Shown: one piece after another, positions 2,331 through 54,452 of the stretch
How positions within the stretch are numbered: position 1 is the stretch's first letter
Layout: every line of letters starts with the position of its first letter
NCBI GenBank assembly: GCA_017481225.1
Contig: JAFUPM010000058.1
Location: forward strand, 1-62,180
Direction: 5' to 3'
Source: Clostridia bacterium
GTDB lineage: Bacteria; Bacillota; Clostridia; Oscillospirales; CAG-272
DNA length: 62,180 nucleotides
The notes under the pieces: generated by a model
What the model saw: only the letters and a program-made list of their open reading frames with translations
Database searches by the model: none
Told to the model about the DNA's origin: nothing
Position numbers and translations under genes: made by a program

Positions 2331-2333
2331 ATT

Positions 2334-3146: not shown

Positions 3147-3369
3147 TTTTCCTCCTCTTTTTAGGCTGTGGGACACGGCTTATCTGCCGTCCGCGGGGCG
3201 GTGTGTTTGCGTTCATTAAACATTTTACCATATAGAATAGCAATATTCAAGCAGTTTTGCCTTATTTCTTGCAAAAAAAAGCAAATTTTGCACATTCTAT
3301 TCTGCTAAAATATAGCTAAGGGATTTATCCCGCCTTGAAAATACATCAAAAGCTGAAAGGAACGCCTCA

Positions 3370-4521: not shown

Positions 4522-4584
4522 GCGAAGCACGCGCCGTAAAAGCTCTTTTTTGGCAATATACCCGGGGGGCGTGTTAAAAAACAC

Positions 4585-4612
4585 GGGCAGTCAGGCTGCC
4601 CTGAGTTTTATT
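4585..4612 (+). terminator. Rho-independent terminator-like hairpin after paralog 1
   Basis: The stem pairs GGGCAG (4585..4590) with CTGCCC (4596..4601) and is followed by TGAGTTTTATT. Confidence 0.5.
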
Positions 4613-4792
4613 CGGACAATACTTTATTCCGTTTAAGCTCCCTCCGATATAGCAAAGGTGCATCTGAAAATGCTCAATAGCCCAAGGTAACAATATCTTT
4701 ACACTCAATCTATAATTCACACGTATTTAATTTTGAAAGGAAAAAATCACGCTGCTATCGCCCGCGGCAACTAAAATTAAAAGCGAGGAAAA

Positions 4793-7147: not shown

Positions 7148-7285
7148 AACGTTGGTTAAAGCGCGCAAACGGGATATAAAATACTTCGGTTTAGCGCGCA
7201 AACGGGATATAAAATACTTCGGTTTAGAGCGCAAACAGGATATAAAACACTTCGGTTTAGAGCGCAAACGGGGGCGCAAATCGCT
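7129..7285. repeat. Tandem 33-bp repeat (~4.5 copies) seeded on the stop codon of the GH20-like gene
   Basis: GCGCAAAC/GCGCAAAT units start at 7131, 7163, 7196, 7229 and 7262. The first unit contains the last codons (KGANKI) and the TAA at 7145..7147. Confidence 0.85.
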
Positions 7286-7579
7286 ACACGCCCCCCGACT
7301 AAACGAAATGCGCGGCGAAAGGGCGGCGTATATCGTGCCCGTTAAATCTACATAATTTCAAACGCACAAAGTCGGCACGTAAGTGCCGCGATACCGTCAA
7401 GGGTCGGATAGTCTAAAATCGATATACGGGCGTGTTTGCCGTTTTTTCTTCCGCAGTGGCGGAGGCACCAGGCAGGTGCGCCCGAAAATTGCACCTACAA
7501 GGCAAAGCGCGGTGCATATATAAAAAAGTGAAAAATTGAGACACCTCCCCCGACTAATATACATTTGAAAGGAACTAAA

Positions 7580-8665
7580 ATGACAGCAAAAGAGTTAGCC
7601 GTAATGTCGGCGGAAACTATGATGAAAAGGTTTGAGGCAAAGGACCTGCCTCCCGTTGGTAAATTCCATTATCACCAAGGAGTATTCCTCTCCGGAATGC
7701 TTCACACCTACCACCTCACAGGTGACGAAAGATACTATAACTACGCGAAGGAGTGGGTTGACTCTCTCCTTGGCGATGACGGCTTGCCGAGAGATATGGA
7801 GACCACAGCCCTTGACGATATGCAGCCCGGTATACTCCTCTACGAGCTATACGACAAAAGCGGTGACGAAAGATATAAAAAGCTTCTCGACAAGATAATC
7901 TGGCATATTGACCGCTGGCCCAAGAGCGAGGAGGGCGGATTTTTCCACAAGGACAACGGCAGGTCGGCTAATATGTGGCTCGACGGAATGTATATGGGCG
8001 GTCCCGTTACCGCCGAGTACGGCGCAAGATATGCAAGAGCTGACCTTTTCGACGAGGTGCATCACCAGATGTCGCTTATGCGCGACAGAATTACCGACGA
8101 GGAAACGGGACTTATGTACCACGCCTACGACCAGACGAGAAAAGCCACCTGGGCAAACCCCGTGACGGGCAGAGCCTCACACTTCTGGGGCAGAGCTATG
8201 GGCTGGTATGCCGTCGCAATGTTCCAGATTGCCGAGCTTCTTCCCGACACCTACGAGAAAAAGGGTGAGTTCCTCGCAAAGGGCAAGGAGCTGCTGGAGG
8301 TGCTGTTCAAATACCAGGATAAAAAGACGGGACTTTGGTACCAGGTAATAGATAAGGTTGACGACCCGAGAAATTGGCCGGAGACCTCCTGCTCCTGCCT
8401 TTTCCTCTATGCCCTTTGTATGGCAGTGAAGGCAGGAACGTTTGAAAAAGAAGCCGTCATAGATATAGCGTCACGCGCCTTCGAAGGCATCAAATCTATG
8501 CTTAAGCTCGGAGATGACGGCTATCTCGGTGTCAGCGGTGTTTGCATCGGAACGGGTGTCGGAGACCTTGAGCATTACTATAACCGTCCCACAAGCGAAA
8601 ACGACCTTCACGGCGTCGGCGCATTCCTTCTTATGGCTTGCGAATACGCGAAGGTGTTCGAATAA
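7580..8665 (+). CDS. GH105 unsaturated rhamnogalacturonyl/glucuronyl hydrolase (YteR/YesR-like)
   Basis: The track ORF starts at TTG 7565. I prefer ATG 7580, which follows GAAAGGAA. The motifs PPVGKFHYHQGVFLSGML..ERYY, GGFFHKD...MWLDGMYMGGP, GLMYHAYD, FWGRAMGWY, TGLWYQVIDK and NDLHGVGAF match B. subtilis YteR as I recall it. Confidence 0.85.
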   Translation: MTAKELAVMSAETMMKRFEAKDLPPVGKFHYHQGVFLSGMLHTYHLTGDERYYNYAKEWVDSLLGDDGLPRDMETTALDDMQPGILLYELYDKSGDERYKKLLDKIIWHIDRWPKSEEGGFFHKDNGRSANMWLDGMYMGGPVTAEYGARYARADLFDEVHHQMSLMRDRITDEETGLMYHAYDQTRKATWANPVTGRASHFWGRAMGWYAVAMFQIAELLPDTYEKKGEFLAKGKELLEVLFKYQDKKTGLWYQVIDKVDDPRNWPETSCSCLFLYALCMAVKAGTFEKEAVIDIASRAFEGIKSMLKLGDDGYLGVSGVCIGTGVGDLEHYYNRPTSENDLHGVGAFLLMACEYAKVFE

Positions 8666-8734
8666 TTTAAAGAGCTTTTACCCCTAAAAAATACAGAAAA
8701 AGTAAATCGCACTTTACATATTGAGGATTTTATA

Positions 8735-9889
8735 ATGAAAACTCCCGAAACTTCAAAGCTCTTCACCAAGGTAGTAGACCCGCAAAGCGGCGTACCGCAC
8801 TACGTGCTTACAGAGCGCAAGACAGCCTATCAGCAGGGCTTCTACTTCGTCAACAATTCTATGTCACGGGATGGCAGATATCTCTGGTTTTACGCCGTGC
8901 CCAACCCCGTTTACACCACTATGGACCGCAACCTCGGATACGTAGATTTCCTTTCCGACGAGGTGGTTATCTGCCACGACGTCCTCTTTGACGATGCCTC
9001 CCCCTACGTTGACCCCGACACAGGCGACGTCTACTATGCAAAGGGCAGAAAAATCTACAAGCGCGAGCCGAAAAAGGATAAGATGGCAGAGGTTGTCTGC
9101 ACCGTAAATATCCCCGGGTACATACTGAAGCTTGCAACTCACCTCACTATGACCTCGGATAAAAAGCACTTTTTCCTTGACGTCAACCGCGAGGACTTCG
9201 GCTGTATGCAGGGACTTGTAAATATCGAGACGGGCAAGTTTACCGAATGGACGAGAAGCTCTCACAACACCAACCACGGACAGATAAATCCCCAAAACGA
9301 CAGCCTTGGGCTTTGCGCCTACGACTCCTTTAGCAGAATGTCCGACGGCTCTAAGGTAAGTATTCCCTACACCGATGACGGCATTTATCAAAGACTTTGG
9401 ACGGTAACGTCCGAGGGCGAGCGCAAAATGTACCCCGCAATGCACAACTACGCCACCCACGAATGGTGGTCAGCCGACGGCAAGAAGATATACTACTGCT
9501 GTGATAAGCAGGGAATATACGGCAAAAACATCGAGACGGGCGAGGATATTGCCATTCTCGAGGGCGTTGACCCCTGGCACGCACATTGCACGAAGGACGA
9601 GACACTCTTCATCTATGACGAGAAAAAGCTTGAGCGTTACGGCGGAAAGTGGTACAGAGGCTGCCCCGCGGCGCTGAATTTCCTTAACAGAAGGACGGGC
9701 AAAAGCCTCGTTGTCGTAACCGAAATGCCCGAAAACGGCTTCACCCCCGACAACCAGACCGCCTACCACATTGACCCCCACCCCCGCTTCTCCGAAAACG
9801 AAAAATACGTTATATTCTCAACTACCGAGCTTGGCGGCTGCGACCTGGCAGTTGCTTCGGTTGACGAGCTTGTAGCTCTCACCAAGTAA
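8735..9889 (+). CDS. PL22 (Ogl)-like beta-propeller protein, paralog 2
   Basis: The ORF is 384 aa. Its N-terminal half is closest to paralog 3, and aa ~250-345 are closest to paralog 1. It carries YHIDPHPRFSENEKYVIFST and has no signal peptide. Confidence 0.6.
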   Translation: MKTPETSKLFTKVVDPQSGVPHYVLTERKTAYQQGFYFVNNSMSRDGRYLWFYAVPNPVYTTMDRNLGYVDFLSDEVVICHDVLFDDASPYVDPDTGDVYYAKGRKIYKREPKKDKMAEVVCTVNIPGYILKLATHLTMTSDKKHFFLDVNREDFGCMQGLVNIETGKFTEWTRSSHNTNHGQINPQNDSLGLCAYDSFSRMSDGSKVSIPYTDDGIYQRLWTVTSEGERKMYPAMHNYATHEWWSADGKKIYYCCDKQGIYGKNIETGEDIAILEGVDPWHAHCTKDETLFIYDEKKLERYGGKWYRGCPAALNFLNRRTGKSLVVVTEMPENGFTPDNQTAYHIDPHPRFSENEKYVIFSTTELGGCDLAVASVDELVALTK

Positions 9890-9941
9890 GCCGCAAAACA
9901 CCTTCGGTAATTGACTTACAAAGCTCGGGAAGCAAAGGTGC

Positions 9942-10140
9942 CCAAGCGATAGCCCGTTGACCTTGGAAAAAGCCGACGGCACACGGCGATAGGGTTGTAA
10001 CACTCCCCGAGGAAAGCACCCAAGCCAAGCGATAGCTCGTTGACCTTGGAAAAAAGCCGACGACACACGGCAACGAAGATAAAGCGTCCTTCGGCAGGTC
10101 GTACCCCTCGTCCAAGCGGCGGCTCGTTGACCTTGGAGTA
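9942..10140. repeat. Degenerate tandem repeat (~83-87 bp period, ~2.5 copies) between paralogs 2 and 3
   Basis: CCAAGCG(A/G)..GC.CGTTGACCTTGGA... recurs at 9942, 10025 and 10112. The repeated-peptide ORFs in the track here (9818..10177 and others) are artefacts of the repeat. Confidence 0.7.
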
Positions 10141-10259
10141 CGCGCGGCACCGTTCTAAGCCATCGGCTCTCAAACACGATAAAAACTATAAAATTTCAAT
10201 GATAAGACGGCTAAATTGCCCCCAAAAATATAACTTTTTAGCACCTAGGATAAAAGATA

Positions 10260-11408
10260 ATGAAAACTCCAGAAACCTCAAAGCTTTTCAAAAGAGTAAC
10301 AGACAAGGTAAGCGGCGTGCCGTATTACGTGCTTGCAGAGCGCAAGACAGCCTACCAGCAGGGCTTCTACTTTGTCAATAATTCTATGTCACACGACGGC
10401 AGATATCTCTGGTTCTACGCCGTGCCTAATCCGGTCTATGACGATATGAACCGATACCTTGGCTACGTGGATTTCCTCGCCGACGAGGTGGTTACCTGCT
10501 ACGACGCGCTTTTCGATGCCGCATCCCCTTACGTTGACCCCGACACGGGAGACGTCTACTACACACGTGGCAAGGGCATCTACAAAAGAGAGCCTAAAAA
10601 GGATGCTCTTGCCGTGCGACTCTGCACGGCAAACATACCCGGCTACGTATTCACTCTCGCCACGCACCTCACTATGACGTCGGACAAAAAGCACCTCTTT
10701 CTCGACGTGCGCCGCGCGGACTTCGGAACTATGCAGGGGCTGGTTGATATTGAAAGCGGCGAGTTTACCGAGTGGACCCGAAGCGAATACAATATGAATC
10801 ACGGTCAGATTAATCCAAAGAATGAGACAATTGCCCTTTGTGCATACGACAGCTACTCTAAGCTTTCCGACTGGGCGAAGGTAAGGATTCCCTACACCGA
10901 CGACGGCATCTACCAAAGGCTCTGGACGGTGAGGGCTGACGGCACTCGCACCTTGCACCCCGCCCGCGACAACTACGCCACCCACGAATGGTGGTCAGCA
11001 GACGGCAAAAAAATATACTACGTCAACGACCTCGGCATACAGCGTCTCAATCTTGAGACAGGGGAGCACGTCTGCATACACGAATGTTATCCCTGGCACG
11101 CCCACACCACAAGCGACGAGAAGTATTACGTTTTCGACGAAAAGGTGCTTGACCGCTACGACGGAAAATGGTATCGCGGCTGTCCTGCGAGAGTTCGCTT
11201 CTATAACCGCGAAACGGATAAGGAAATAACCGTAGTCACCGAGATGCCCGAAAACGAATTCACGCCCACCCATCAGAACAATTACCATATCGATCCTCAC
11301 CCCCGCTTCTCGGAAAACGAAAAATACATTATATTCTCAACCACCGAGCTTGGCGGATGCGACCTGGCGCTTGCCTCGGTTGACGAGCTTGTAGCTCTGA
11401 CAAAGTGA
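10260..11408 (+). CDS. PL22 (Ogl)-like beta-propeller protein, paralog 3
   Basis: The ORF is 382 aa. Its last residues (ASVDELVALTK) are identical to those of paralog 2. It carries YHIDPHPRFSENEKYIIFST. Confidence 0.6.
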   Translation: MKTPETSKLFKRVTDKVSGVPYYVLAERKTAYQQGFYFVNNSMSHDGRYLWFYAVPNPVYDDMNRYLGYVDFLADEVVTCYDALFDAASPYVDPDTGDVYYTRGKGIYKREPKKDALAVRLCTANIPGYVFTLATHLTMTSDKKHLFLDVRRADFGTMQGLVDIESGEFTEWTRSEYNMNHGQINPKNETIALCAYDSYSKLSDWAKVRIPYTDDGIYQRLWTVRADGTRTLHPARDNYATHEWWSADGKKIYYVNDLGIQRLNLETGEHVCIHECYPWHAHTTSDEKYYVFDEKVLDRYDGKWYRGCPARVRFYNRETDKEITVVTEMPENEFTPTHQNNYHIDPHPRFSENEKYIIFSTTELGGCDLALASVDELVALTK

Positions 11409-11485
11409 TTAAAAACGCCAAAAAACGTGACACGTGGTGCCACATGCCCATAAATCAACGTTAAATCAACATTGGTAAGCTAAAT

Positions 11486-12718
11486 ATGAAAAGCAAAAGT
11501 TCATGTGCGAACAGACTGATTTTCCTCTGCTGGCTTGTATACGCAACCTCATATATCGGCAAGCTCAGCTACAGCGCAAACATAAACCGAATAGGCGAGG
11601 CCTTCGACGTAAGCTACAGCGCCGCAGGCATTGTAACCACCTTCTTCTTTTTCGTATACGGAGCGGGTCAGATAGTCAACGGATTTTTATGTAAAAGGTA
11701 CAATATTAAGTACGTAATAGGAATAAGCCTTATTGTGTCGGCTACGATGAATTTGCTCGTCGGAGTCGTCCATAGCTTCAACGTAATTAAATACCTCTGG
11801 CTCATAAACGGCGCGGCAATGTCCTTCCTCTGGACCTCCCTTATTAGGCTGCTCTCCGAGACTCTCGACCGAGAGGATATACCCCGTGCGACAGTTGCTA
11901 TGGGTACAACCGTGGCTATCGGCACCTTCTCGGTGTACGGCATCAGCTCGGCGGTTGCCGCCTCCCTTTCCTACAGAACGGTATTTTTAATAGCGGCAAC
12001 GCTGATTTTTGCCGTTGCTATATTCTGGTTTATAAGCTATAATATTTTTACAAAGCCCCTTTTGGCAAGCAAAGCAGAGCTTACTCTAAAGGATGACGGA
12101 AACACCAAAACAGCCGCAAGCGGCGGCGTCGCGGCTGTGCTGCCCTTCCTTGCGGTTATTGCTATCCTCGCGGTGTCGGACAACCTTATAAAGGACGGTC
12201 TTACCTCCTGGACTCCCGACATTTTAGCCGAAATTTACGACACGCCCCCCTGGCTATCCATACTTTTGACACTTCTCCTCCCTGCCCTTGGAATACTTGG
12301 CTCGGTGGTGGCAGTAAAGCTCGTCGGAGCCTTGGGAGACTACGTTCTCTCCTGCACCGTGCTTTTCGGCACGTCATCACTGCTTATCGGAGTGGTGTTA
12401 GCATTTATTTCAACACCCTATATGGCGGTAACCGTCGCAAGCTTCGCTTTGGTTTCCTGCCTTATGGCAGGTGTTAATAACATTATCACCAGCATGATAC
12501 CACTGGGTATGAGCGACAAGGTAACTCCCGGAAAGCTTGCGGGAATTCTTAACGGCTTCTGCTATCTCGGTAGCACCGTCAGCGCATACGGTCTCGGTGC
12601 TATCGCAGATGCCTTTAGGTGGGTATCGGTATTCTATACCCTCCTTGGAGTCTCGGCGCTCTGCACGGTGCTGGGTATAGGCTATCTCTTGGCAAACAAG
12701 CTCGGAAAACGAGTGTAA
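11486..12718 (+). CDS. MFS transporter
   Basis: The ORF is 410 aa with 12 predicted hydrophobic helices. It lies in the same strand run as the glycan enzymes. Confidence 0.75.
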   Translation: MKSKSSCANRLIFLCWLVYATSYIGKLSYSANINRIGEAFDVSYSAAGIVTTFFFFVYGAGQIVNGFLCKRYNIKYVIGISLIVSATMNLLVGVVHSFNVIKYLWLINGAAMSFLWTSLIRLLSETLDREDIPRATVAMGTTVAIGTFSVYGISSAVAASLSYRTVFLIAATLIFAVAIFWFISYNIFTKPLLASKAELTLKDDGNTKTAASGGVAAVLPFLAVIAILAVSDNLIKDGLTSWTPDILAEIYDTPPWLSILLTLLLPALGILGSVVAVKLVGALGDYVLSCTVLFGTSSLLIGVVLAFISTPYMAVTVASFALVSCLMAGVNNIITSMIPLGMSDKVTPGKLAGILNGFCYLGSTVSAYGLGAIADAFRWVSVFYTLLGVSALCTVLGIGYLLANKLGKRV

Positions 12719-41712: not shown

Positions 41713-41915
41713 AAATTCTTTGATATCACGTTGATGATTGTTTAAAAAATAGCATTTCTCCGCTTTTTTGACAACTCTATTTTACATTTCAGCTCATTTT
41801 ACTAACTATATGGCGGCAGTAAAAACTGCCGCCACATCTTTTTCTTCTACTATAAAACCGTATTACAACTATTGAAATTCGTATCACAAAGCCGCATTTT
41901 GACGAGCTTTCTGTC

Positions 41916-45034: not shown

Positions 45035-45595
45035 AAAAATGCTCACGAAATTAGCGTGTTATCCTTAACGGAGAACACGCATCGAGATAAATCCCTTGCG
45101 GGATTTTCGATATGGTTTGCATACCTCGCCAAAGGCGAGATATACAAACTCGATATGTGCTGACGCACTCGATATGTTTGCTTTGCAAACGAGGGATTTA
45201 TCTCATATCGAATTGACGCGGAGCGACAATATATCGAGCTTGAGCGCAGTGAAAGCATATCGAGTTCATCTTTCGTGAATATATTTCACGAAAGTGAATA
45301 TATCAACAGAATAAAAAACAAGAGCAAGAATAGAAGGAAGTTTATCCTTTTACTCTTGCTCTGTTCGTTTTTATAGATGAATTGATGCTAATGCATCATG
45401 AATTGGCTTCGCCATGATTTCTCGTCGGCGTGCCGCCTCCTCCATGAATTGAATTGCAACAAATGTGCCGATAGGCACAATTCATGCCGCAGGCAATTCA
45501 TGAAAGCATAGCTTTCAATTCACGCGGGCCGCGAGGTTGCAATTCATTGCGTGTTCTCCGTTAAGGATAACACGCATCCGCGTGAGCATTTTTTA
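45035..45595. repeat. Non-coding element bounded by ~47-bp inverted repeats, filled with direct/inverted 8-mer word arrays
   Basis: The left IR is AAAAATGCTCACG (45035..45047) plus GCGTGTTATCCTTAACGGAGAACACGC (45054..45080). The right IR is its reverse complement, at 45549..45575 plus CGTGAGCATTTTT (45581..45593). Interior left half: CTCGATATG x3, then ATATCGAG x3. Interior right half: ATGAATTG x3, then CAATTCAT x3-4. Short GC hairpins separate the words, and no ORF is present. Confidence 0.8.
45321..45373. terminator. Bidirectional terminator at the centre of the IR-bounded element
   Basis: The stem pairs AGAGCAAGA (45321..45329) with TCTTGCTCT (45354..45362). It is flanked by an A-run on the left and GTTCGTTTTTAT on the right. 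Confidence 0.55.
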
Positions 45596-46201
45596 TATTC
45601 CAAGTATGGAGCTTGCCTCGAGAAGATGCGCGCGGTCCTCTTCGGACGTGAGGGCTGAAAGCTTGAATTTCAGATTGTTTTCCACAAGCTCGGAGAAGGT
45701 CACAGGCTTATATCCGTTCACGTCCACGCCTGCGTTAAGGGCGCAGGGGTGAGTATATAATGGGTCATATTCCGAGGATATGCGGTTGTGAATATGACCG
45801 TGTACGTGGTAGCCCACCTTCTTGCCCAGAGGTTCTCGGCTTGCCTTCCACTCCAGCATCGGATAGTGGCACATCGTCACAGAGTGACCATGGTGGCTTA
45901 TTTCGAGATACTGAAGAATACTCTCAAAGTGGCAGAGGCTTTCCTCTCGCTTTGCCCAGGTTGAATCGTGATTTCCTCTTATAAGAATTTTCTTACCAAG
46001 GAGGCGCTCAAGATAATAATCCACGCGTTTTTTATCCCAAAGAAGGTCCCCAAGGATATAAACCGTATCGTTCCTTTTGACTCTTCGGTTCCAATTTTCA
46101 ATCAATGCTTCGTCCATTTCCTCCACACTCTCAAAGGGTCTTTGGCACAGCTCAATTATTCTCTCGTGCCCGAGGTGCAAATCAGAGGTAAAATATATCA
46201 A
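45593..46201 (-). CDS. Metallophosphoesterase (calcineurin-like)
   Basis: The ORF is 202 aa with the motifs MIYFTSDLHLGH, ILGDL, GNHD and HGH. Confidence 0.75.
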   Translation of the reverse strand: MIYFTSDLHLGHERIIELCQRPFESVEEMDEALIENWNRRVKRNDTVYILGDLLWDKKRVDYYLERLLGKKILIRGNHDSTWAKREESLCHFESILQYLEISHHGHSVTMCHYPMLEWKASREPLGKKVGYHVHGHIHNRISSEYDPLYTHPCALNAGVDVNGYKPVTFSELVENNLKFKLSALTSEEDRAHLLEASSILGI

Positions 46202-47006: not shown

Positions 47007-47795
47007 CTAGTCCTCAATTACTATGCAATTTACAAAGCCCGAGCAAGCGGTGCAGGCATCTATGGCAATAATTCCCTCGCCGTAGTAAGGAGTGAAAACC
47101 GCCCACTCGCCAAACTCCGAGCCAACTCCGTCAAGCACCGAATGACCGTAGGACGCGTGAAAATGACCGCATACGACGGTTTTGCCGGGCTCTACTACAC
47201 CGTGCTTGCAGGCAAGCTCCATACCGTTCAGCCATTTTGCACCTCGCCAGGCTATGCTGTCGGCATCTCTCCAATCGGGGTTATAGCTGTAGCTTGCCCG
47301 TGGCGGATAGCCTTCTATAACCGAGGGTATCCAGCCGTGGACGAAAACGTAGCCTTCCGTCTCAAAGTAATTAACCGCAGAGGGCAAAAGCGAAGTGTAA
47401 TAAGGAGAGCGCATCACCCGTCGTACAAGCTCCTCGGGGCAGGCGTAAGCCCCGGCACAGTCCATACCGCTAAGCTGCAAGAGCGTATCCCAGGTTCCGT
47501 TTCTTTCGTGGACGGACATACCCGAGGCAATCTCGTGAACGCCGCCTCTTGCAATCTCGTACAGGCATCTCACAAGCAGCTCCTCGTGGTTTCCGTTAAT
47601 GTAAATAAGCCTTCCCGCCTCGTGTAGCTTCAGGCAAAAATCAACGAGCAATGAAGCCTCCCCTCCTCTGTCAAGAAGGTCACCGCACACAATAAGCCGA
47701 GAGGACTCCCCCTCGTCAAAAAAGCCTGCCCCCCGAAGCGACTCCATAATCTCCGTATAGTAGCCGTGTGTGTCAGCTACAACGTAATATTTCAT
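47007..47795 (-). CDS. Metallophosphoesterase of the Ser/Thr-phosphatase (lambda PPase/PrpE-like) type
   Basis: The ORF is 262 aa with the motifs VVADTHGYY, CGDLLDRG, NGNHE and CGHFH. Confidence 0.75.
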   Translation of the reverse strand: MKYYVVADTHGYYTEIMESLRGAGFFDEGESSRLIVCGDLLDRGGEASLLVDFCLKLHEAGRLIYINGNHEELLVRCLYEIARGGVHEIASGMSVHERNGTWDTLLQLSGMDCAGAYACPEELVRRVMRSPYYTSLLPSAVNYFETEGYVFVHGWIPSVIEGYPPRASYSYNPDWRDADSIAWRGAKWLNGMELACKHGVVEPGKTVVCGHFHASYGHSVLDGVGSEFGEWAVFTPYYGEGIIAIDACTACSGFVNCIVIED

Positions 47796-47878
47796 AAGAT
47801 ACCGCCTCCCTTCGCAAGCGTTAAACCGTACATTTTCAGAATATTTGACAACTATAATTTACATTTTTTGGGAAAATA

Positions 47879-47915
47879 AAGTCGGAGACGGCAAATGCTG
47901 CTCCGACTTTTTTAT
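47879..47915. terminator. Hairpin terminator directly after the 1153-aa AAA+ protease gene
   Basis: The stem pairs AAGTCGGAG (47879..47887) with CTCCGACTT (47901..47909). T-runs lie on both sides, and the site abuts the stop codon at 47916..47918. Confidence 0.65.
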
Positions 47916-50900
47916 TTACAGCTTCACAGCTGACGACGAGAATATTTCGTCAATTTCCTTTTCCTTAAGATGGTTGCGCTCCATAAGCGCATCAACCATT
48001 TTATCTATAGCGCGCCTGTTTTTTTCAATAATCTCTACAGCCTTCCGTAGCTCCTCTGCGAGTATATTATTCACGCTATCGCGTACAGACTCGGGGGTCG
48101 TGCCGTTCAGCTGACGGGTGCTAAGTCCGATATCCTCGTACATTCCGTAGGAGCAAATCATATGCTCCGCTATACGCGTTGCCGATTGAAGGTCGCCCGA
48201 CGCCCCCGTGGAAATTCCGTCGGGATAGCCGTAATAAACAAGCTCCGCCGCCCTGCCGCCAAGGGAGGTGCGTATTCTGTCAAGAAGCTCCGGTCTTGTG
48301 TAGCTTCCCTTATCCTCGCTGTTTGCGTGCTGCATATATCCGCCGTGGTCGCCTCTGGCAACAACGGTAAGGTAGGTAGGCTTCTCTCCGCACAGCCAGC
48401 AAATCAGCGCGTGGCCCGCCTCGTGTCTTGCAGTACGGATAAGAGAGTCGGGGCTCCACTCCTTTTTCTCACCGCTGTTGAAGGTCTCGAACGCCTCCTC
48501 GAACTCCGCGTCACCAACAGTACCGCTATCCGAACGTATAGCGCTTCGCAAAGCCATCTCGAATACAGACTCTAACTCTGCAAGGCTCATTCCCGTGGAG
48601 CGCATAGCGATATTATCCACTTGCTCGGGGCTGAGCTTCACGGAGGAGTTCTTCGACAGCTTCATCTCGATATAACGTCTGCGCTCCTCCTTGTTCGGAA
48701 GGTCAACGTAAATTCTTCTGTCAAATCTGCGTAGCAATGCCCCGTCAAGACTCTTTCCGTTACCGGGCTCTACGCCGTAATTCGTAGCGGCAAGGACGAA
48801 CACGGGCTTCGTGGTATCTGTATTAAAGCCGTCCATTTCCGTAAGGAGCGCCGTAAGAATATCTCCCGTAGAGGAGGAGTCGGATATGCTGTCTCTGTTC
48901 TTGCCTACGGCGTCTATCTCGTCAATGAAAACTATCGTGGGCGCGTATTTTCTAGCCGTCTTGAACAGCGAGTGAACCGCCTCGGGTCCCTCTCCCACAA
49001 AGCGCTTTAGGAATTGGTTGCCCTCAGCGCGGATAAAGGTCACGCCCGACTCGCCCGCCATCGCCTTGGCAAGGAGTGTTTTGCCCGTACCGGGAGGTCC
49101 GTAAAGCAGGACGCCCTTAGGCGCTCTCACGCCGCGGCGCAGGTATTCTATGGGATTTTTCAGGTATTTAACAAAGTATTTTAGCTCGTCCTTTGCGCCC
49201 TCGGCTCCGATAACGTCGTCAAAGTGAACGTTTGGCCTCGTCACGTCGTCAAGAACTCCGCCCGAGTCCTCGGTATCGGTTATGAGGGAAAGCTTGAAGC
49301 CGAAAAGTCGGATTTCGGCAGACTTTCCGTCAGGAGAGATTATCTGAGCCGTCTTATAGGACATAGCGCGGCTCTCTCTTGCAAGCATATTCATCTTGCT
49401 CTGCTGATATGCAATCTTGCACCTTTCAAGCACAGCTTCGGCAAACTCACCCGTCTCCCCCTTCAGCGTAAGAACGTCTCTCACGCCGAGCCTTGCGAAG
49501 GACAGCAGCTCAGCCTTGGATATATCGCCCTTGTTTTGCTCAAGAACGTATACGGGCAGCGAGTATTTCTCCAGCACGTACAGCACAAAGTCTCTGCCCT
49601 CGGAGTCGATATCCTCGGCATTGAGAACCTTTATTTCGCTACGCCTCGGATTGAAGCTGATGTCGGAAATAATAAGGTCTATATCGTGATTAAAGAGAAT
49701 TTCCTTAGCTGTGGCAATGCTGTCAGCCGTGTGACATACGACCTTGTCACCAAGTCTTTTTTTACATTCCGCACAGACCCTCTTGCCCGAGAACACGAGG
49801 ACCTCGGATTTGCGCCCGGAGTCAAACAGCTCCTCGGCATCACCCATAAGCTCCTCCTTCGGAACGCTTACGTTAATCTCCGAGAGCCCTTCTATTACCG
49901 AATCGCCGTCGGGCAGGAGCCTGAACAGCTCGTAAAGCTCGTCGTAGAAGAAGGAATTTGCTCTGCCCTTGACGGTTCTGGCATCAGCCTTGCCGCCCTC
50001 GGCAAACATTATGGCACCGGCAACTCTGTCGTCAACGTTGATATTTATGCCCATCGCCCTCTCGAGACCCTCTACGTTTTTCGAAAGCTCGCGTTTAGCT
50101 ATATTGTAAAGGTTGCACGCCTCAAGGTGGTTGAACATAACCACGTTTCCCGAGGCAAAGCGCGAGCATATCGCCGCGGGGAAAAGAGGCTCCCCGATTG
50201 CAGGGTTGACGTCTTTTTCCAGAGCCTTAAGTATCTTTTTCCTCGGCAAAGAGGAAAGGTTTACCACACTCGGGTCGTTATAAAGATTTTTGCCTACGTT
50301 TGTTGTAAGTATTATGACCGCATTTGTAAAGCTTACGGTTCTTGTGGTGTTGTTATCTGTCAGATGACCCGCATCAAGCATCTGTAAAAACAGGTGAATT
50401 ACGTTAATATGCGCCTTCTCTATCTCGTCGAAAAGAAGCACGCAATGAGGGTTCTTCTCAACAAAGCCCGTAACCGCGCCCTCGCTTGCCGCTTGGTAGC
50501 TTGGAGGCGTACCGCAGAACTCGTGGTGGGAGGAGGGAGAGGCGTACTCGCTCATATCAAATCGCTTGAAGGGCTTACCGAGAGCCTCCGCCGCCTTCTC
50601 CGCAAGGAAGGTTTTTCCTACGCCGGGAGGGCCTGCGAAAAGAAAGGTCGCCTGGGGCTTGGTTGTATCTCCGCGGGAGCTTGCCATAAGCCTCGACTGG
50701 AAATATCCCGAAACGAATGCGCTTACCGCGCGGTCCTGACCGAACACCGAGTCAAGGAGGGTGGTCTGTATCTCTCTGGTTGTCTTGACAAGCTCGGAAA
50801 GAGACGGCACCTCCTCAGCCTTCGTGAGCTTTTCCTCGAGCTCACCCTCGGTGTGCCCCTCCTCTGCCTTCGGCAGGGATTTATCCTTATCACCTTCTGT

Positions 50901-51377
50901 GGAAGATGCCTTAGGGAACCACTTATCAAAGCTGAGGTCGCTTACGGGCTTTACCTCGGGGTCGCGTATAACGCACTCCTTAATGGCGGTGGTGGGCTTC
51001 GTAAGTATGGAATCAAGATACATCGCAGCGTCCACAAGCTCAAGATTGCCGTCCTTCGCCTTTTTCTCAGCGTCGGATACAACGATATTGAACATTATAT
51101 CGTCGCCAAGAGAGCCTTTTGCGGCATTCACCTTCAGATATGCTCGAATATCGCCGAGGGCTGCTTTTATATCAACGGAGTGTTTGTCAAGTGACTCGCG
51201 AATAGCCGCAAGCTCGCTTTTGGTTTGCTTGCATTTTACCTCCTCGGGAAGGCACTTTTCTCCCTCGAGCAGCACCTCGAGAACCGAAGCTACGAAGTGG
51301 TTGGCATTTGGAGACTTCAACGCAAGCTCTCTCGCGCGCCCAAGTATATATTCTAAAAACAGACTTTTCTTAATCAT
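47916..51377 (-). CDS. Soluble chimeric AAA+ protease: Clp_N-like + ClpA/B-D2-type AAA+ + REC-like module + FtsH-type AAA+ + M41 zinc peptidase
   Basis: The ORF is 1153 aa with no hydrophobic helix.
- aa 205-480 are ClpB-D2-like: VFGQDRAVSAF, FLFAGPPGVGKT, VLLFDEIEKAH, LDAGHLTDNNTTRTVSFTNAVIILTTNVG.
- aa ~524-645 are CheY-like: VLVFSG...DLIISDISF...PVYVLEQ...GVRDVLTLKG.
- aa 715-960 are FtsH-like: GVLLYGPPGTGKTLLAKA (nt 49100..49077), IVFIDEIDAVG, LLRRFDRRIYVDLP.
- The HEAGH motif lies at nt 48425..48411, followed by LGGRAAELVYYG. Confidence 0.8.
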   Translation of the reverse strand: MIKKSLFLEYILGRARELALKSPNANHFVASVLEVLLEGEKCLPEEVKCKQTKSELAAIRESLDKHSVDIKAALGDIRAYLKVNAAKGSLGDDIMFNIVVSDAEKKAKDGNLELVDAAMYLDSILTKPTTAIKECVIRDPEVKPVSDLSFDKWFPKASSTEGDKDKSLPKAEEGHTEGELEEKLTKAEEVPSLSELVKTTREIQTTLLDSVFGQDRAVSAFVSGYFQSRLMASSRGDTTKPQATFLFAGPPGVGKTFLAEKAAEALGKPFKRFDMSEYASPSSHHEFCGTPPSYQAASEGAVTGFVEKNPHCVLLFDEIEKAHINVIHLFLQMLDAGHLTDNNTTRTVSFTNAVIILTTNVGKNLYNDPSVVNLSSLPRKKILKALEKDVNPAIGEPLFPAAICSRFASGNVVMFNHLEACNLYNIAKRELSKNVEGLERAMGININVDDRVAGAIMFAEGGKADARTVKGRANSFFYDELYELFRLLPDGDSVIEGLSEINVSVPKEELMGDAEELFDSGRKSEVLVFSGKRVCAECKKRLGDKVVCHTADSIATAKEILFNHDIDLIISDISFNPRRSEIKVLNAEDIDSEGRDFVLYVLEKYSLPVYVLEQNKGDISKAELLSFARLGVRDVLTLKGETGEFAEAVLERCKIAYQQSKMNMLARESRAMSYKTAQIISPDGKSAEIRLFGFKLSLITDTEDSGGVLDDVTRPNVHFDDVIGAEGAKDELKYFVKYLKNPIEYLRRGVRAPKGVLLYGPPGTGKTLLAKAMAGESGVTFIRAEGNQFLKRFVGEGPEAVHSLFKTARKYAPTIVFIDEIDAVGKNRDSISDSSSTGDILTALLTEMDGFNTDTTKPVFVLAATNYGVEPGNGKSLDGALLRRFDRRIYVDLPNKEERRRYIEMKLSKNSSVKLSPEQVDNIAMRSTGMSLAELESVFEMALRSAIRSDSGTVGDAEFEEAFETFNSGEKKEWSPDSLIRTARHEAGHALICWLCGEKPTYLTVVARGDHGGYMQHANSEDKGSYTRPELLDRIRTSLGGRAAELVYYGYPDGISTGASGDLQSATRIAEHMICSYGMYEDIGLSTRQLNGTTPESVRDSVNNILAEELRKAVEIIEKNRRAIDKMVDALMERNHLKEKEIDEIFSSSAVKL

Positions 51378-51419
51378 ACCGAGAAATCCTTTTCACCTTC
51401 TGTTATGTTATAAAGCTTA

Positions 51420-53207
51420 TTACCTCGAGCCAACGCTTCCGTCCTTACGTTTTTCCTCCTCGTCGAGGCTGGAAAAGTCTACGAGGTCATTGTGCATTTT
51501 TCCAAGGTCGTTGCGGCTTGTGGGGTCGGGAGAACCGCTGTAAACGTAGCCCTCCGACCTCATATATGCATTCCAGCGGCGATGCTCCAGCACCTCAATT
51601 GCAGCTCGCTCCTGCTCGCTAAGCTCCGCCTCCGCCTTATCTGCACCGGGTATGCCGCAGACTATACGGGCTCTCATATGAATAGCCGAGGCAACGGAGG
51701 AACGGTAGTTATAGCCGTAGCTCCAGAACTCCTCCTCATCACCCCATTTCAGATGACGGGCAAGAGCCGCACCCTCAAGCTCGGAGTCGAGTATTACGTC
51801 GCAGGTAAAGGAGGACTCCGCATCGCCAAGGAACTCAATATCGTAGGGCTGACCCTTGTAGTTCTTTATACCATCAAGAGCGCGTTTTTGCTGCGATGAG
51901 TAAACTATTGTTTGTATTTTGGGGTGAATTCCCATTCTTTCGAAGTACATTCTGAGGTTCACCGCGGTGTTAATATTAAGTGTATCATTGCCGAGCGCAA
52001 TCATAACGTAGGTAGTGTCCTTGAGCTTGGAAATCTCTTCTGCAAAGCCCCAAGCTTCAACGTCAAAGCCAGGGTGCAACTCAATGGAATACTGCGCCTC
52101 GCCCTCCACGCAAACCCCGTTATACTTCGGGGACATAAGCTCGGGAGCTATAGCCGTAAAGCGTTCGCCTGCAAGGGGGTCCTTATCAAAGGCGTGTATC
52201 TTGAGGGTATATCCGTCCATCTGCCCGAACCAGGCGAGTGCCTTCACCATTTCGGTGCCGTGGTTACCCATACCTATTACAACCGCGGTAATCTTTTTCT
52301 CTCCGTCGGGCATCGGCTTTGCAGTATTGAAAATTACCTCGCCTCGCTCATAGAGAACGCGGTCTATAAGAGACTCAACCTCGTTAATCCTTCTGACCTT
52401 GATTTTACCCTTGCTCGACGAGTTGAGAAGCAGCTCGCACTCAATATGCGTGGAGAAAACGTACAGACGTGTCCCGACTCTCTCCTTGTATTTTTCAATA
52501 AGCTCAAGAGAGGCCTTCAGATTTTCCGTCTCGTCCTCGCTTATGGCGAAGAAGGACAAGGCAGCCTTCGCCGAATGTCTGTCAAAATCAAAGCTTTGAA
52601 CGTCCTGCCTCATACAGATAGCGCCAATCTCGGCAGCATCTCTTAAAAGCTCAAGCCCGCCGTCCTCTCCGTTGAATACGCTCGTAAATACGATAGCGGC
52701 TTTAGGGAAGCTTTTCTTAATATCGCGGGCGAGGACCAGCGACTTTTCGTTAAGTGCTGAAAGAACGTACACGTCCTTAAAATAAACGGCAAGATATTTG
52801 AGGTGCGCGCTAAGGTTTTTGAACAGCGACAGCACAAAGCCGAAGGTAAATACGGGAGCAACCACGAACAGAAGTGAAACCCACGCGTTATAGCCGGGCG
52901 CCAACCACTCGGGGCAAAGGGGCATAGATTCAGCAACAACGCCGAACTCACAGCCTATAGCAAAAATCTGCATTGAGTTAAAGACCGACAAAAACAGCGA
53001 CCTTACAACTCCGAAAAAGCTCGCCTCTGCCACTGCCTTATGTACGGGGAAGAACATAAACATCGCCGAAACGAACACCCCGCCGAAAAGGGAGTTAAAC
53101 AGATTAAATCTATGTTTTCTGCCGAACTCGCTGTTGCTTATTACAAGCGATACAAGCGGCACGAGCACCACGCAGGCTATCGACAGCGCAAAGCATACTG
53201 ACCACAT
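51420..53207 (-). CDS. Membrane protein: 4 TM helices + two Rossmann/KTN-like modules + C-terminal RyR-like domain
   Basis: The ORF is 595 aa with an AGAGG RBS. Hydrophobic helices lie within aa 1-130. A GxGxxG motif is present (VVIGMGNHGTEM, aa 309-320). The C-terminal EVLEHRRWNAYMRSEGYVYSG...LGKMHNDLVDFSSLDEEEKRKD fits the RyR-domain pattern as I recall it. Confidence 0.7.
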   Translation of the reverse strand: MWSVCFALSIACVVLVPLVSLVISNSEFGRKHRFNLFNSLFGGVFVSAMFMFFPVHKAVAEASFFGVVRSLFLSVFNSMQIFAIGCEFGVVAESMPLCPEWLAPGYNAWVSLLFVVAPVFTFGFVLSLFKNLSAHLKYLAVYFKDVYVLSALNEKSLVLARDIKKSFPKAAIVFTSVFNGEDGGLELLRDAAEIGAICMRQDVQSFDFDRHSAKAALSFFAISEDETENLKASLELIEKYKERVGTRLYVFSTHIECELLLNSSSKGKIKVRRINEVESLIDRVLYERGEVIFNTAKPMPDGEKKITAVVIGMGNHGTEMVKALAWFGQMDGYTLKIHAFDKDPLAGERFTAIAPELMSPKYNGVCVEGEAQYSIELHPGFDVEAWGFAEEISKLKDTTYVMIALGNDTLNINTAVNLRMYFERMGIHPKIQTIVYSSQQKRALDGIKNYKGQPYDIEFLGDAESSFTCDVILDSELEGAALARHLKWGDEEEFWSYGYNYRSSVASAIHMRARIVCGIPGADKAEAELSEQERAAIEVLEHRRWNAYMRSEGYVYSGSPDPTSRNDLGKMHNDLVDFSSLDEEEKRKDGSVGSR

Positions 53208-53240
53208 AAATATTACCTCTTAAAATATATTGTTTTTTTA

Positions 53241-53269
53241 ATTATAACACGGCTGTCGACCCTTGTCAA
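53241..53269 (-). promoter_or_regulatory. Consensus sigma-70 promoter of the RyR-protein/AAA+ protease operon
   Basis: On the minus strand, an exact TTGACA (53269..53264) is followed by 17 nt and an exact TATAAT (53246..53241). The site lies ~35 nt upstream of ATG 53207. Confidence 0.65.
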
Positions 53270-53623
53270 TATCGCGCACCAAGTTTTGAAGTGTACAAAA
53301 CGCCCTACCCTGCTAAGTCGGCGCACAAAGCTCTCTTAAATTTACAAAAGCCCAAATCCCAAAAGCTTGCCAACCAAGCCTCTAGGCTTTGACGTTTTCG
53401 TCAGGAAACCGGACCAAAAGAAGAAGTTGTTCTTCACCCAAACACATCGGTTCAATTCAAACAATATTCAACCTCAAAAGCAGAATAACCAAGGGTTTTG
53501 ACAACCATAGTTTATATTTTGCCGTTTTTTACTACGAAAAGAGATGCTCACTTTTAAGACATTAAGGGATTTTACTCCAATATAATTCAACGTCCGCCGT
53601 GTTTTTTAACACGTGATATTCCC

Positions 53624-53658
53624 AAAATATAAAAAGGCGAGGCAATATTTGCCTCGCC
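53624..53658 (-). terminator. Terminator of nagB
   Basis: The stem pairs GGCGAGGCA (53636..53644) with TGCCTCGCC (53650..53658). On the minus strand it is followed by UUUUUAUAUUUU. Confidence 0.7.
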
Positions 53659-53666
53659 GATAAAGC

Positions 53667-54452
53667 TTACTTTTCGTTTTTGTAGATTTCCTTGAAGTAT
53701 TTGTAGGTGTCAACCTTAAGCTCACCGCAGGCTGCCTCGTCGCAAGCGATAATTCCGTCCTTGTGGAGCTGGAGCGCGCTTATGGTCCAGGCGTGGTCAA
53801 CGCCGCCCTCGACACAGTGGCGAAGTGCGCGAGCCTTGTTGTGTCCGCTGATAAGGAGAAGCACCTGCTTGGAGTCGCAAACGGTACCTACGCCCACGGA
53901 AAGCGCGGTTTTCGGAACCTTGTCGGGGTCGTTGCCGAAGAAGCGGGAGTTTGCTATCAGCGTGTCGGCGGTCAATGCGCGAACGCCTGTTCTCGAGGTG
54001 AGGGAGGTGAAGGGCTCGTTGAAGGCAATGTGTCCGTCAACGCCGCTGCCGCCGAGGAACAAATCAATTCCGCCAAAGGACGCAATCTTATCCTCGTATC
54101 TCTGGCACTCGGCATCAAGGTCCTCGGCCATACCGTTCAGTATATTTACGTTCTCCGAAGGGATATCTATGTGATTGAAGAGATTATCGTGCATAAAGTA
54201 CCAATAGCTCTGGTCATGCTCTCTCGGAAGTCCTACGTATTCGTCCATATTGAAGGTTACGACGTTCTTGAAGCTCACCTTGCCTGCCTTATTCATAGCA
54301 ATAAGCCTTTTGTAAACGCCAAGGGGCGAGGAGCCCGTAGGCAAGCCAAGGACGAATGGACGGTTCTCCTTGTGATTGTTTATAGCGTCAGCAATATGCT
54401 GCGCCGCCCAATCGCTCATCGCGTCGTAGTTGTCCTTAATAATCAGTTTCAT
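53667..54452 (-). CDS. nagB: Glucosamine-6-phosphate deaminase
   Basis: The ORF is 261 aa. FVLGLPTGSSPLGVYKRLI, FNMDEYVGLP and GIGxDGHIAFNEP-type motifs (GGSGVDGHIAFNEP) are present. Confidence 0.9.
   Translation of the reverse strand: MKLIIKDNYDAMSDWAAQHIADAINNHKENRPFVLGLPTGSSPLGVYKRLIAMNKAGKVSFKNVVTFNMDEYVGLPREHDQSYWYFMHDNLFNHIDIPSENVNILNGMAEDLDAECQRYEDKIASFGGIDLFLGGSGVDGHIAFNEPFTSLTSRTGVRALTADTLIANSRFFGNDPDKVPKTALSVGVGTVCDSKQVLLLISGHNKARALRHCVEGGVDHAWTISALQLHKDGIIACDEAACGELKVDTYKYFKEIYKNEK

Follow-up and report, generated by a model that had tools for sequence, protein, structure and literature searches.

Structure of the locus

A two-gene operon was investigated at positions 47,879 to 53,269 of a 62,180-nt stretch of contig JAFUPM010000058.1, which derives from a Clostridia bacterium of the CAG-272 lineage (GCA_017481225.1) and is referred to in this article as the window. 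The interval is filled by two minus-strand open reading frames (ORFs), gene A (53207..51420, 595 amino acids (aa)) and gene B (51377..47916, 1153 aa). Gene A encodes a membrane protein with tandem RCK-like domains and a divergent RyR domain, and gene B encodes a soluble AAA+ protease with two ATPase tiers. The operon is tentatively rated here as a nucleotide-linked conflict or stress module in which known domains occur in an undescribed combination. An earlier reading of the DNA alone, referred to as the original prediction, had described the pair as an autonomous unit that couples a membrane sensor to a protease. The features of the operon, in the order of its transcription, are as follows.

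53626..53658, minus strand: terminator of nagB (hairpin and T-run), upstream boundary of the unit
53241..53269, minus strand: operon promoter, TTGACA, 17-nt spacer and TG-extended TATAAT, 12/12 consensus
51420..53207, minus strand: gene A, 595 aa, membrane RCK-RCK-RyR protein (ORF, family and AlphaFold2 model)
52791..53207, minus strand: A residues 1-139, transmembrane (TM) region (hydropathy, positive-inside rule, model helices, invariant residues)
52326..52772, minus strand: A residues 146-294, first Rossmann/RCK-like domain; its glycine motif is degenerate (model, Foldseek)
51792..52298, minus strand: A residues 304-472, second RCK/KTN domain; G312-x-G314-x-x-G317 and D341 are invariant
51423..51617, minus strand: A residues 531-595, divergent RyR Repeat12 (PF02026) domain (hhalign, homologue and PDB profile matches)
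51378..51419, minus strand: A-B intergenic spacer, 42 nt, with the Shine-Dalgarno sequence of B and no terminator
47916..51377, minus strand: gene B, 1153 aa, soluble two-tier AAA+ zinc metalloprotease (Pfam, NCBIfam, motifs)
50808..51377, minus strand: B residues 1-190, poorly conserved N-domain (column conservation)
49878..50792, minus strand: B residues 196-500, ClpA/ClpB D2-like AAA+ module with GPPGVGKT and LLFDEIEKA (Pfam AAA_2, E=2.7e-39)
49458..49805, minus strand: B residues ~525-640, CheY-like receiver fold (AlphaFold2 model, Foldseek)
48468..49241, minus strand: B residues 713-970, FtsH-type AAA+ module with GPPGTGKT, FIDEIDA, RFVGEG pore loop and RRFDR (Pfam AAA, E=1.3e-49)
47928..48455, minus strand: B residues 975-1150, Peptidase_M41 with an intact HEAGH (Pfam, E=1.5e-33)
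47870..47910, minus strand: intrinsic terminator of the operon, hairpin GUCGGAG...CUCCGAC followed by UUUAUUUU

Genes A and B form a single insulated transcription unit of the sigma-70 type. The promoter at 53269..53241 is the sole 12/12 sigma-70 match between positions 46000 and 55000, and the chance expectation for such an exact match is estimated here at about 0.003 per 9 kb. In the closest relatives found (loci L092 and L093, with A 75% and B 85% identical to the window proteins), the -35 element, the spacer, the extended -10 element and the ribosome-binding site are kept while the DNA further upstream cannot be aligned, and this phylogenetic footprint indicates that the promoter is real. 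The stop codon of A lies at 51420-51422 and the ATG of B at 51377, with an AAGGA Shine-Dalgarno sequence 9 nt ahead of that ATG and no terminator in the 42-nt gap. Upstream of the unit, the nagB terminator comprises a 10-bp stem with seven GC pairs (53658..53636) and a T-run. The terminator past B starts 5 nt beyond the TAA codon and folds at -17.6 kcal/mol (z=-5.05), a stability equalled by 0 of 200 shuffled sequences; its stem is kept in L092/L093, and a pattern scan overlooked it because of its long loop. Rfam returned no riboswitch or non-coding RNA match at E<=1 in 47700-53750, which includes the 390-nt region upstream of A. The promoter, the same-strand 42-nt gap, the nagB terminator just upstream and the terminator abutting the B stop codon had all been put forward in the original prediction and are all confirmed by these results. 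Its description of an autonomous unit among housekeeping genes stands in respect of the insulation, but the flanking hydrolases are not clearly unrelated, since Metallophos homologues occur beside A or B elsewhere.

Gene A encodes a membrane RCK-RCK-RyR protein

The A family comprises 1883 clusters at 50% identity (E<=1e-3), and relatives of A occur in 338 species-level genomes, all of which are metagenome-assembled genomes (MAGs) of gut or rumen Clostridia. The AlphaFold2 model of A has a pLDDT score (predicted local distance difference test) of 80.7. Hydropathy and the model place hydrophobic TM segments at residues 1-29, 36-55 and 107-132, and the positive-inside rule puts the N-terminus outside. 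Residues 64-102 are amphipathic and acidic, possibly re-entrant, and bear the conserved motif FNSMQxFAxGCEF. A potassium-channel filter (TVGYG-type, TM-pore helix-TM) was looked for in A and none was found; GCEF lies in an acidic inter-helix loop instead. In Foldseek, the cytosolic part of A aligns with the tandem-RCK gating ring of TrkA (E=3e-7, ~410 columns) and whole A aligns weakly with Slo channels (E ~7e-3). The properties examined for an RCK/KTN assignment, namely a Rossmann fold, a tandem layout and GxGxxG with an acidic residue, are all present in A, and its homologues P0034, P0043 and P0044 carry PF02254. The C-terminus is helical in the model.

Several comparisons assign this C-terminus to the RyR family. 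The window protein scores 12.5 bits with the Pfam RyR profile against a gathering score of 27.4, whereas the full-length homologue P0339 reaches 28.3 bits at the same position, above the gathering score. Alignment of A residues 542-592 by hhalign with canonical 93-96-aa RyR proteins gave E=1.5e-5 and 80% probability, and a profile search matched the C-terminus of A to a RyR1 chimera in the PDB (E=0.013). Residues H542, W545, K570, H572, K588 and D589 are invariant over the 17 family members in which invariance was judged. Phage RyR Repeat12 domains bind 2'/3' cyclic ADP-ribose (cADPR) with nanomolar affinity, and the contacts are made by H75/W78/H100/D117 in RyDEP and by H129/W132, K147/H154 and K170/D171 in RyR Tad (PMC13232231; 10.64898/2026.06.04.730250). 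By alignment, the invariant residues of A appear to correspond to these ligand residues of phage RyDEP and RyR Tad; they match residues by which RyR domains of phages and animals bind 2'/3' cADPR as well as adenine nucleotides. The architecture of A is like that of a ligand-gated channel, with a presumptive pore role and a presumptive ligand. The membrane RyR/KTN protein of the original prediction is borne out by these structure and profile comparisons despite its sub-threshold Pfam scores.

Gene B encodes a chimeric AAA+ protease

A TM segment was sought in B by hydropathy and none was found (maximum 19-mer Kyte-Doolittle value 1.14). Motifs and conservation were surveyed in 119 homologues, in all of which the Walker, pore-loop, arginine-finger and zinc motifs are conserved. 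Column conservation is 0.19-0.52 in the N-domain as opposed to 0.7-0.95 in the remaining protein, and the N-domain has no PDB or Pfam match. The Clp-like module matches the ClpA model TIGR02639 at positions 444-689. The middle region was modelled with AlphaFold2 (pLDDT 83.6), and its top 50 Foldseek matches are mostly receivers (E ~5e-5, TMt 0.7-0.8). Of the quintet of residues used for phosphorylation in receiver (REC) domains (an acidic pair after beta1, Asp after beta3, Thr/Ser after beta4 and Lys after beta5), B keeps the invariant beta3 Asp alone (D572, A2 position 128); S/A-G after beta1 replaces the acidic pair, and the conserved beta5 lysine is absent. Judging from the model and these substitutions, this region is a pseudo-receiver or atypical receiver. 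Pfam, NCBIfam and Foldseek thus agree with the chimeric AAA+ protease with a receiver-like domain that had been predicted, and no description of the architecture of B (Clp-D2, receiver and FtsH/M41) was found in the literature searched.

Linkage of A and B in related genomes

The genomic context of A was studied in a set of 80 loci, and B-centred contexts were taken from 12 exact-protein look-ups. A scan of metagenomes with the middle domain of B gave four loci. Four of the 12 look-ups, called the extra loci here and belonging to the B clade termed B2 below, were chosen from outside the A homologue list. About 17 of the 80 A-centred loci have a B-type gene next to A on its downstream side. When the count is limited to the 58 A loci whose downstream sequence reaches 3.6 kb or more, B is next after A in 15, immediately so in 14; in L037, a TIR gene lies between them. 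The gaps measure 11-21 nt in B2 clusters and 42-178 nt in clusters of the other clade, B1; among the 14 immediate pairs, the longer class of gaps spans 126-178 nt, and the provisional start of B overlaps the end of A in L011. Seen from the other gene, A is found in roughly a third to half of B-centred loci. The A genes adjacent to B are scattered over the A tree, and the identity matrices of A and B are moderately correlated (r=0.54). Domain fusions of A and B, of the Rosetta-stone type, were sought in long A homologues and in the A' paralogues described below, and none were found.

Clade B1 includes the window gene. In this clade a 159-aa YbjN gene is almost always next downstream, often followed by genes for a vWA protein, a 702-aa PP2C-like protein and a Ser/Thr kinase, which together form a TerY-P-like triad. 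B1 genes have A upstream in L012, L017, L022, L059, L095 and the window lineage (L092/93), have A downstream in L087 (in the order B-YbjN-A), and occur without A in L081, L085/86, L088/89, L090/91 and L096. In clade B2, A lies upstream in 12 of the 12 loci ascertained through A and is present in two of the four extra loci. B2 is commonly followed by a distant paralogue of A (termed A'), by a 93-aa RyR protein, or by both; in three of the four extra loci the 93-aa RyR protein is downstream of B2, immediately in L098 and L100 and with A' in between in L099. With the exception of L088/L089 (B1), all sampled B1 and B2 loci have YbjN and/or a RyR-domain neighbour (A, A' or the 93-aa RyR protein). 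Two unannotated 158-159-aa genes lie upstream in L100 in place of YbjN, and their likeness to YbjN is a guess.

The pairing of A with B, which recurs in two gene orders and in both B clades, is therefore far above chance yet facultative. Linkage in other genomes, on which the original prediction depended, is found across genera, in two orders and with short gaps, but is not obligate (15/58). Likewise, the idea of a two-gene system is supported in that the pair recurs and weakened in that several B homologues lack A. The steadier partners of B are YbjN in clade B1 and the 93-aa RyR protein in clade B2, and it describes the data better to say that B is accompanied by a RyR-domain protein, by YbjN or by both. 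In the window lineage, B1 and A occur without YbjN or the triad, and in gene content the operon resembles a cut-down form of larger clusters whose genes have been shuffled.

Two groups of additional RyR proteins accompany these clusters. The A' proteins have 660-950 aa, are 23-28% identical to A and share its TM-RCK-RyR plan, some with extra C-terminal regions. They are encoded after B in L011, L016, L024, L037, L047, L068 and L099 and after A in L026, L035 and L066, and these positions hint at hetero-oligomeric assemblies. Host-encoded stand-alone RyR proteins of 93-96 aa (Pfam E ~1e-35) directly follow A, A' or B2 (L003, L005-L008, L011, L016, L026, L031, L045, L047 and L098-L100). These cellular proteins have T-T in place of the K-H phosphate-contacting pair, and their counterparts in phages are the cADPR sponge and glycosidase.

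Other genes in the neighbourhood of A and B

The operon partners of A were scanned as same-strand, closely spaced genes with A-like and B genes left out. The top Pfam families among these 149 partners were TIR_2 (10), Metallophos (5), RyR (4) and Card1 endonuclease (3). A scan with hidden Markov models detected 28 TIR ORFs in 21 of the 80 A loci, 26 of which are on the strand of A. Their architectures are diverse (TIR-NB-ARC-TPR, TIR-TM-LRR, TIR-STAND-HD and others), and TIR genes lie within A-B2 clusters in L031, L037, L047 and L061. TrkH neighbours A in two loci, and genes for TerB and for a zinc metallopeptidase recur near A or B. Downstream of B1, the TerY-P-like triad is fully annotated, including Pkinase, in L085, L095 and L096; vWA and PP2C-like genes follow B1 in L012, L017, L022 and L059 (kinase not checked). 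The assignment of the 702-aa neighbour as PP2C-like comes from NCBIfam Stp1_PP2C (E=1e-6) and a DGMGG motif alone, and neither Pfam nor the PDB gave a PP2C call.

The most direct comparison with the window is provided by L047 (SVND01000001.1, Oscillospiraceae SIG530), where positions 1363-12423 hold a 602-aa TIR gene, nagB, A, B2, A', RyR and a TIR fragment in this order. Set against window positions 47916-54452, nagB is 91% and A 65% identical in amino acids, and B2-A'-RyR stands in place of B1. The nagB-adjacent site has thus undergone locus-specific cassette replacement, and the divergence of A and B is much greater than that of nagB. At least one MAG has a pair of A genes, located on different contigs (L002 and L005), and A' paralogues occur in the same loci as A. 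Shuffled gene content, TIR, CARF and TerB neighbours, and cassette variation are hallmarks of conflict systems.

Several further genes were observed in these neighbourhoods. A CARF and PD-(D/E)xK nuclease of the Card1/Can2-like type is encoded directly upstream of A in L003, L007, L011, L016, L031 and L054, and an unannotated 418-aa gene in L099 is probably a CARF nuclease too. The CARF nuclease matches PADLOC CARF4 (E=2.5e-25), and no CRISPR-Cas genes were found in the +/-8 kb examined around it and A. Transglutaminase-core genes, one form giant (~1735 aa) and others of 350-450 aa, lie upstream of A in L007, L008, L013, L031, L099 and L101 and end the B1 clusters of L085, L094 and L096. A TraG/VirD4-type coupling protein of type IV secretion systems (T4SS) is encoded, together with conserved small genes, a few kb upstream of A in L001, L019, L024 and L064, and in L065 such a coupling protein is encoded on the downstream side of A. 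Conjugative elements therefore seem to carry some copies of the module. Genes for the spore-coat proteins CotJA/B/C and for SpoIVA lie near B (L098:1828-2956 and L090:12480-13937), a proximity that is probably coincidental.

Comparison with known systems

Searches of PADLOC, NCBIfam, Pfam and the literature gave no match of the operon to a named system. The statement in the original prediction that nothing matched a nameable defence or quality-control system was correct as far as PADLOC, NCBIfam and the literature reach.

On the side of A, Thoeris-type TIR systems, whose ligand-activated effectors include TM proteins, are among the closest known. Relatives of A share operons with TIR proteins, and A itself combines TM segments with cytosolic nucleotide-binding domains. 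In Thoeris, however, the gene for the TIR protein ThsB adjoins that of the effector, whereas the window is without TIR, which is present in 21 of 80 related loci; a search of all reading frames of the window found no TIR ORF. Furthermore, A would sense with RCK and RyR domains rather than SLOG, Macro or DUF6650, many TIR proteins encoded next to A are large STAND or LRR proteins rather than the small ThsB, and no described Thoeris type has an AAA+ protease partner. The main text of a late-2025 survey of TIR systems mentions no RyR effector. The phage anti-Thoeris proteins RyDEP (a glycosidase) and RyR Tad (a sponge) share with A the RyR Repeat12 fold and the H..W, K..H and K-D residues, but they are small, soluble and anti-defence, whereas A is cellular and membrane-bound, has 595 aa and contains RCK domains. 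RCK channels and transporters (TrkA/TrkH, KtrAB, MthK, Slo/BK and Kef) resemble A in the tandem RCK domains that follow the TM region and in the GxGxxG...D site. They differ from A in that it has three TM segments and an amphipathic segment, no TVGYG-type filter and an added RyR domain.

On the side of B, the C-terminal 440 residues align with FtsH and retain Walker A and B, the second region of homology, pore loop, arginine fingers and HEXXH. Unlike FtsH, B has no TM anchor or periplasmic domain, its alignment begins at profile position 155, and its score of 354.6 bits with TIGR01241 is below the equivalog cutoff of 600 bits; a Clp-D2-like ring, a receiver fold and a novel N-domain precede the FtsH part. 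The Hsp100 proteins ClpA, ClpB and ClpC share the Clp D2-type AAA+ module with B. However, B has one Clp-type module (196-456), lacks Clp_N, the M-domain and the ClpP-binding loop, and scores 136-178 bits where the cutoffs are 993-1232. The protease adaptors RssB and CpdR also tie a receiver fold to proteolysis, and RssB is among the structural matches of B; in B, by contrast, the receiver forms part of the protease itself and is missing most of the residues used for phosphorylation.

Three defence systems share components with the clusters described above. B1 orthologues precede YbjN, vWA, PP2C and Ser/Thr kinase genes in a manner reminiscent of TerY-P, and TerY-P-like modules are validated stand-alone defence systems (PMC11090510), but the triad is absent from the window and the triad proteins have no PADLOC model matches. 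B matches the IetA and DolB models of IetAS and Dodola through generic AAA+ cores only, whereas the partners IetS (an S8 protease) and DolA (DUF6414) are absent and the neighbours in the window are A and Metallophos. The FtsH ternary system was considered as a further candidate and rejected, as it needs MoxR, vWA and a double FtsH-type ATPase (Kaur et al. 2020).

Flanking genes and repeats in the window

Two other features close to the operon may be connected with it.

47007..47795, minus strand: 262-aa Metallophos gene (ApaH/PrpE/lambda-phosphatase/PPP-like), separately transcribed, possible accessory (Pfam, NCBIfam)
47844..47867, also 53497-53520 and 41767-41790, minus strand: 24-nt motif AAAATGTAAATTATAGTTGTCAAA (direct repeat D17)

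Six or more further lineages (L092/93, L087, L070, L062, L018 and L081) encode a homologue of the 262-aa Metallophos protein next to A or B, and this flanking hydrolase may belong to the module. A second Metallophos gene (202 aa) is located at 45593-46201, and an esterase gene separates it from the first on the downstream side of B; in L037, a homologue of the 202-aa gene with 48% identity is found upstream of A. These Metallophos proteins may be signal-degrading or phosphatase accessories. The 24-nt motif AAAATRTAAAYTATRGTTGTCAAA has three copies on the minus strand of the window compared with 0.00 expected, and two of these, spaced by 5653 nt, lie as direct repeats on either side of the A-B operon. 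A copy also follows B in L092/L093, and the rest of the 1.27 Mb of related loci contains none. The motif might represent an operator, a recombination scar or a promoter element that serves the Metallophos gene.

Recent horizontal gene transfer of the operon is not supported by composition, as the GC content of A and B and their GC at third codon positions (GC3) are like those of the neighbouring genes. Carriage by a phage or plasmid is not supported either: there was no plasmid match, and B was not found in viral collections, in which A is represented by one IMG/VR contig and one unverified phage record.

Proposed function and alternative explanations

The explanation preferred here, tentatively and with a little less than an even chance of being right, is that the operon represents the minimal version of a modular, RyR-linked protease/channel module for conflict or stress. 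It would belong to a fast-diversifying network in gut and rumen Clostridia that covers Oscillospiraceae, Acutalibacteraceae, Lachnospiraceae and Christensenellaceae. In the proposed mechanism, an adenine- or NAD-derived nucleotide would bind the RyR/RCK module of A. The ligand would probably be a TIR product in relatives of A, and in the window genome it could reflect ATP/ADP/NAD(H) status. Binding would shift the state of A, which might lead to ion flux or depolarisation and to altered engagement with B. B would be built as a Clp-D2-type ring stacked on an FtsH AAA+/M41 ring, with the pseudo-receiver between the tiers, and its rapidly evolving N-domain would be the recognition domain. B may then degrade or reset its RyR-domain partner, or the partner may switch B on against other targets. 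The identity of the ligand, channel activity, contact between A and B and its direction, and a role in defence are each presumed in this mechanism, and the direction from membrane sensor to protease is only one among a number of conceivable wirings. A bolder form of the same explanation, in which A proteins are RyR-gated channels that answer ADP-ribose-derived signals made by TIR proteins and B reads or resets RyR proteins, would make these genes a new family of immune modules with the window as a minimal TIR-less form. This bolder form is considered doubtful.

A number of results weigh against a conflict or stress module. A has no match in PADLOC, and the PADLOC matches of B are with generic AAA+ cores only (IetA, DolB and TRIP13). 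The window protein A is sub-threshold in Pfam for RyR (E=0.18) and for KTN (TrkA_N, E=0.15), the last 40 residues of its model have low confidence, and A has no K+-type selectivity filter, so that channel activity is a guess. TIR, YbjN, vWA and small RyR genes were sought in the 62-kb window and none were found, and the operon therefore has no local signal source. The flanks of the window are metabolic, and the GC and GC3 of A and B resemble those of their neighbours. About 74% of A loci and several B loci lack the partner, which means that neither gene needs the other. In addition, the A-centred loci come from phylogenetically related MAGs, so their counts are not independent events, and the TIR counts cover the 80 A loci rather than whole genomes.

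The strongest alternative is a housekeeping role, in which A would be a cation channel or transporter (Trk/Ktr/MthK-like) that is regulated by adenine nucleotides and serves K+, pH or osmotic control and B a disaggregase-protease serving quality control or turnover of A in the manner of FtsH. Such a role is thought unlikely while deserving serious attention. The fold of A matches the TrkA gating ring and TrkH lies beside A in two loci; the metabolic flanks, the vegetative-type promoter consensus and the lack of a compositional anomaly agree with it, as do the complete, housekeeping-type catalytic motifs of B and the occurrence of the A family in 338 species, often beside ordinary genes. However, a housekeeping pair would not readily account for TIR as the commonest operon partner of A or for the recurrence of CARF nucleases, STAND NTPases, the TerY-P-like triad and T4SS genes. 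It is equally at odds with two A genes in one MAG, A' genes in the same loci as A, shuffled gene content, a different cassette at the nagB site of a close relative and divergence of A and B that is faster than that of nagB. The missing K+ selectivity motif of A and the hypervariable N-domain of B are further difficulties for it.

A second alternative holds that A and B are separate modules that gather in variable, island-like regions and are co-transcribed through an accident of insertion. Each gene does occur without the other in many genomes, and each has other partners, which are TIR-STAND, TIR-LRR, small RyR or A' proteins for A and YbjN or the small RyR protein for B. The correlation between the A and B identity matrices is only moderate (r=0.54). 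Against independence stand the constant order and strand and the short gaps in both B1 and B2 clusters, and the recurrence of the association over the A tree and in both B clades. Where A is missing, B2 precedes another RyR-domain protein, and this argues for a specific relationship between RyR proteins and B rather than mere co-location. Independence of the two genes is given a low probability.

In established systems, FtsH- and Lon-type proteases control labile toxins and antitoxins. A protease-restrained toxic pore, in which A is toxic on accumulation and degraded by B until titration or inhibition of B (by proteotoxic stress or phage inhibitors) frees A and the membrane potential collapses, has this general precedent, the low-confidence and probably flexible C-terminal tail of A as a possible protease handle and the position of A upstream of B in a tight operon in its favour, but it is the least probable of these explanations: A is common without B, so that its supposed toxicity could not depend on B in general, and its conserved nucleotide-binding sites favour control by a ligand.

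Significance

B is an undescribed protease architecture found abundantly in gut Clostridia, and the near-constant presence of YbjN or RyR proteins next to it suggests a new adaptor logic for regulated proteolysis. The compact two-gene operon has its own promoter and terminator and is therefore directly clonable. Phage RyR proteins are known to bind or cleave cADPR isomers made by TIR proteins, and the role of cellular RyR domains has been posed as a question (PMC13232231; 10.64898/2026.06.04.730250). The A family is a large group of unannotated cellular proteins with RyR, RCK and TM regions, the commonest operon partner of which is TIR. If A is indeed a ligand-gated effector, bacterial TIR signalling would be linked to ion flux through a domain of the animal ryanodine receptor. 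In the bolder and more doubtful form of the explanation, in which A channels answer TIR-made signals, the A family would represent a prokaryotic counterpart, and possibly an evolutionary antecedent, of the animal axis from cADPR to the ryanodine receptor.

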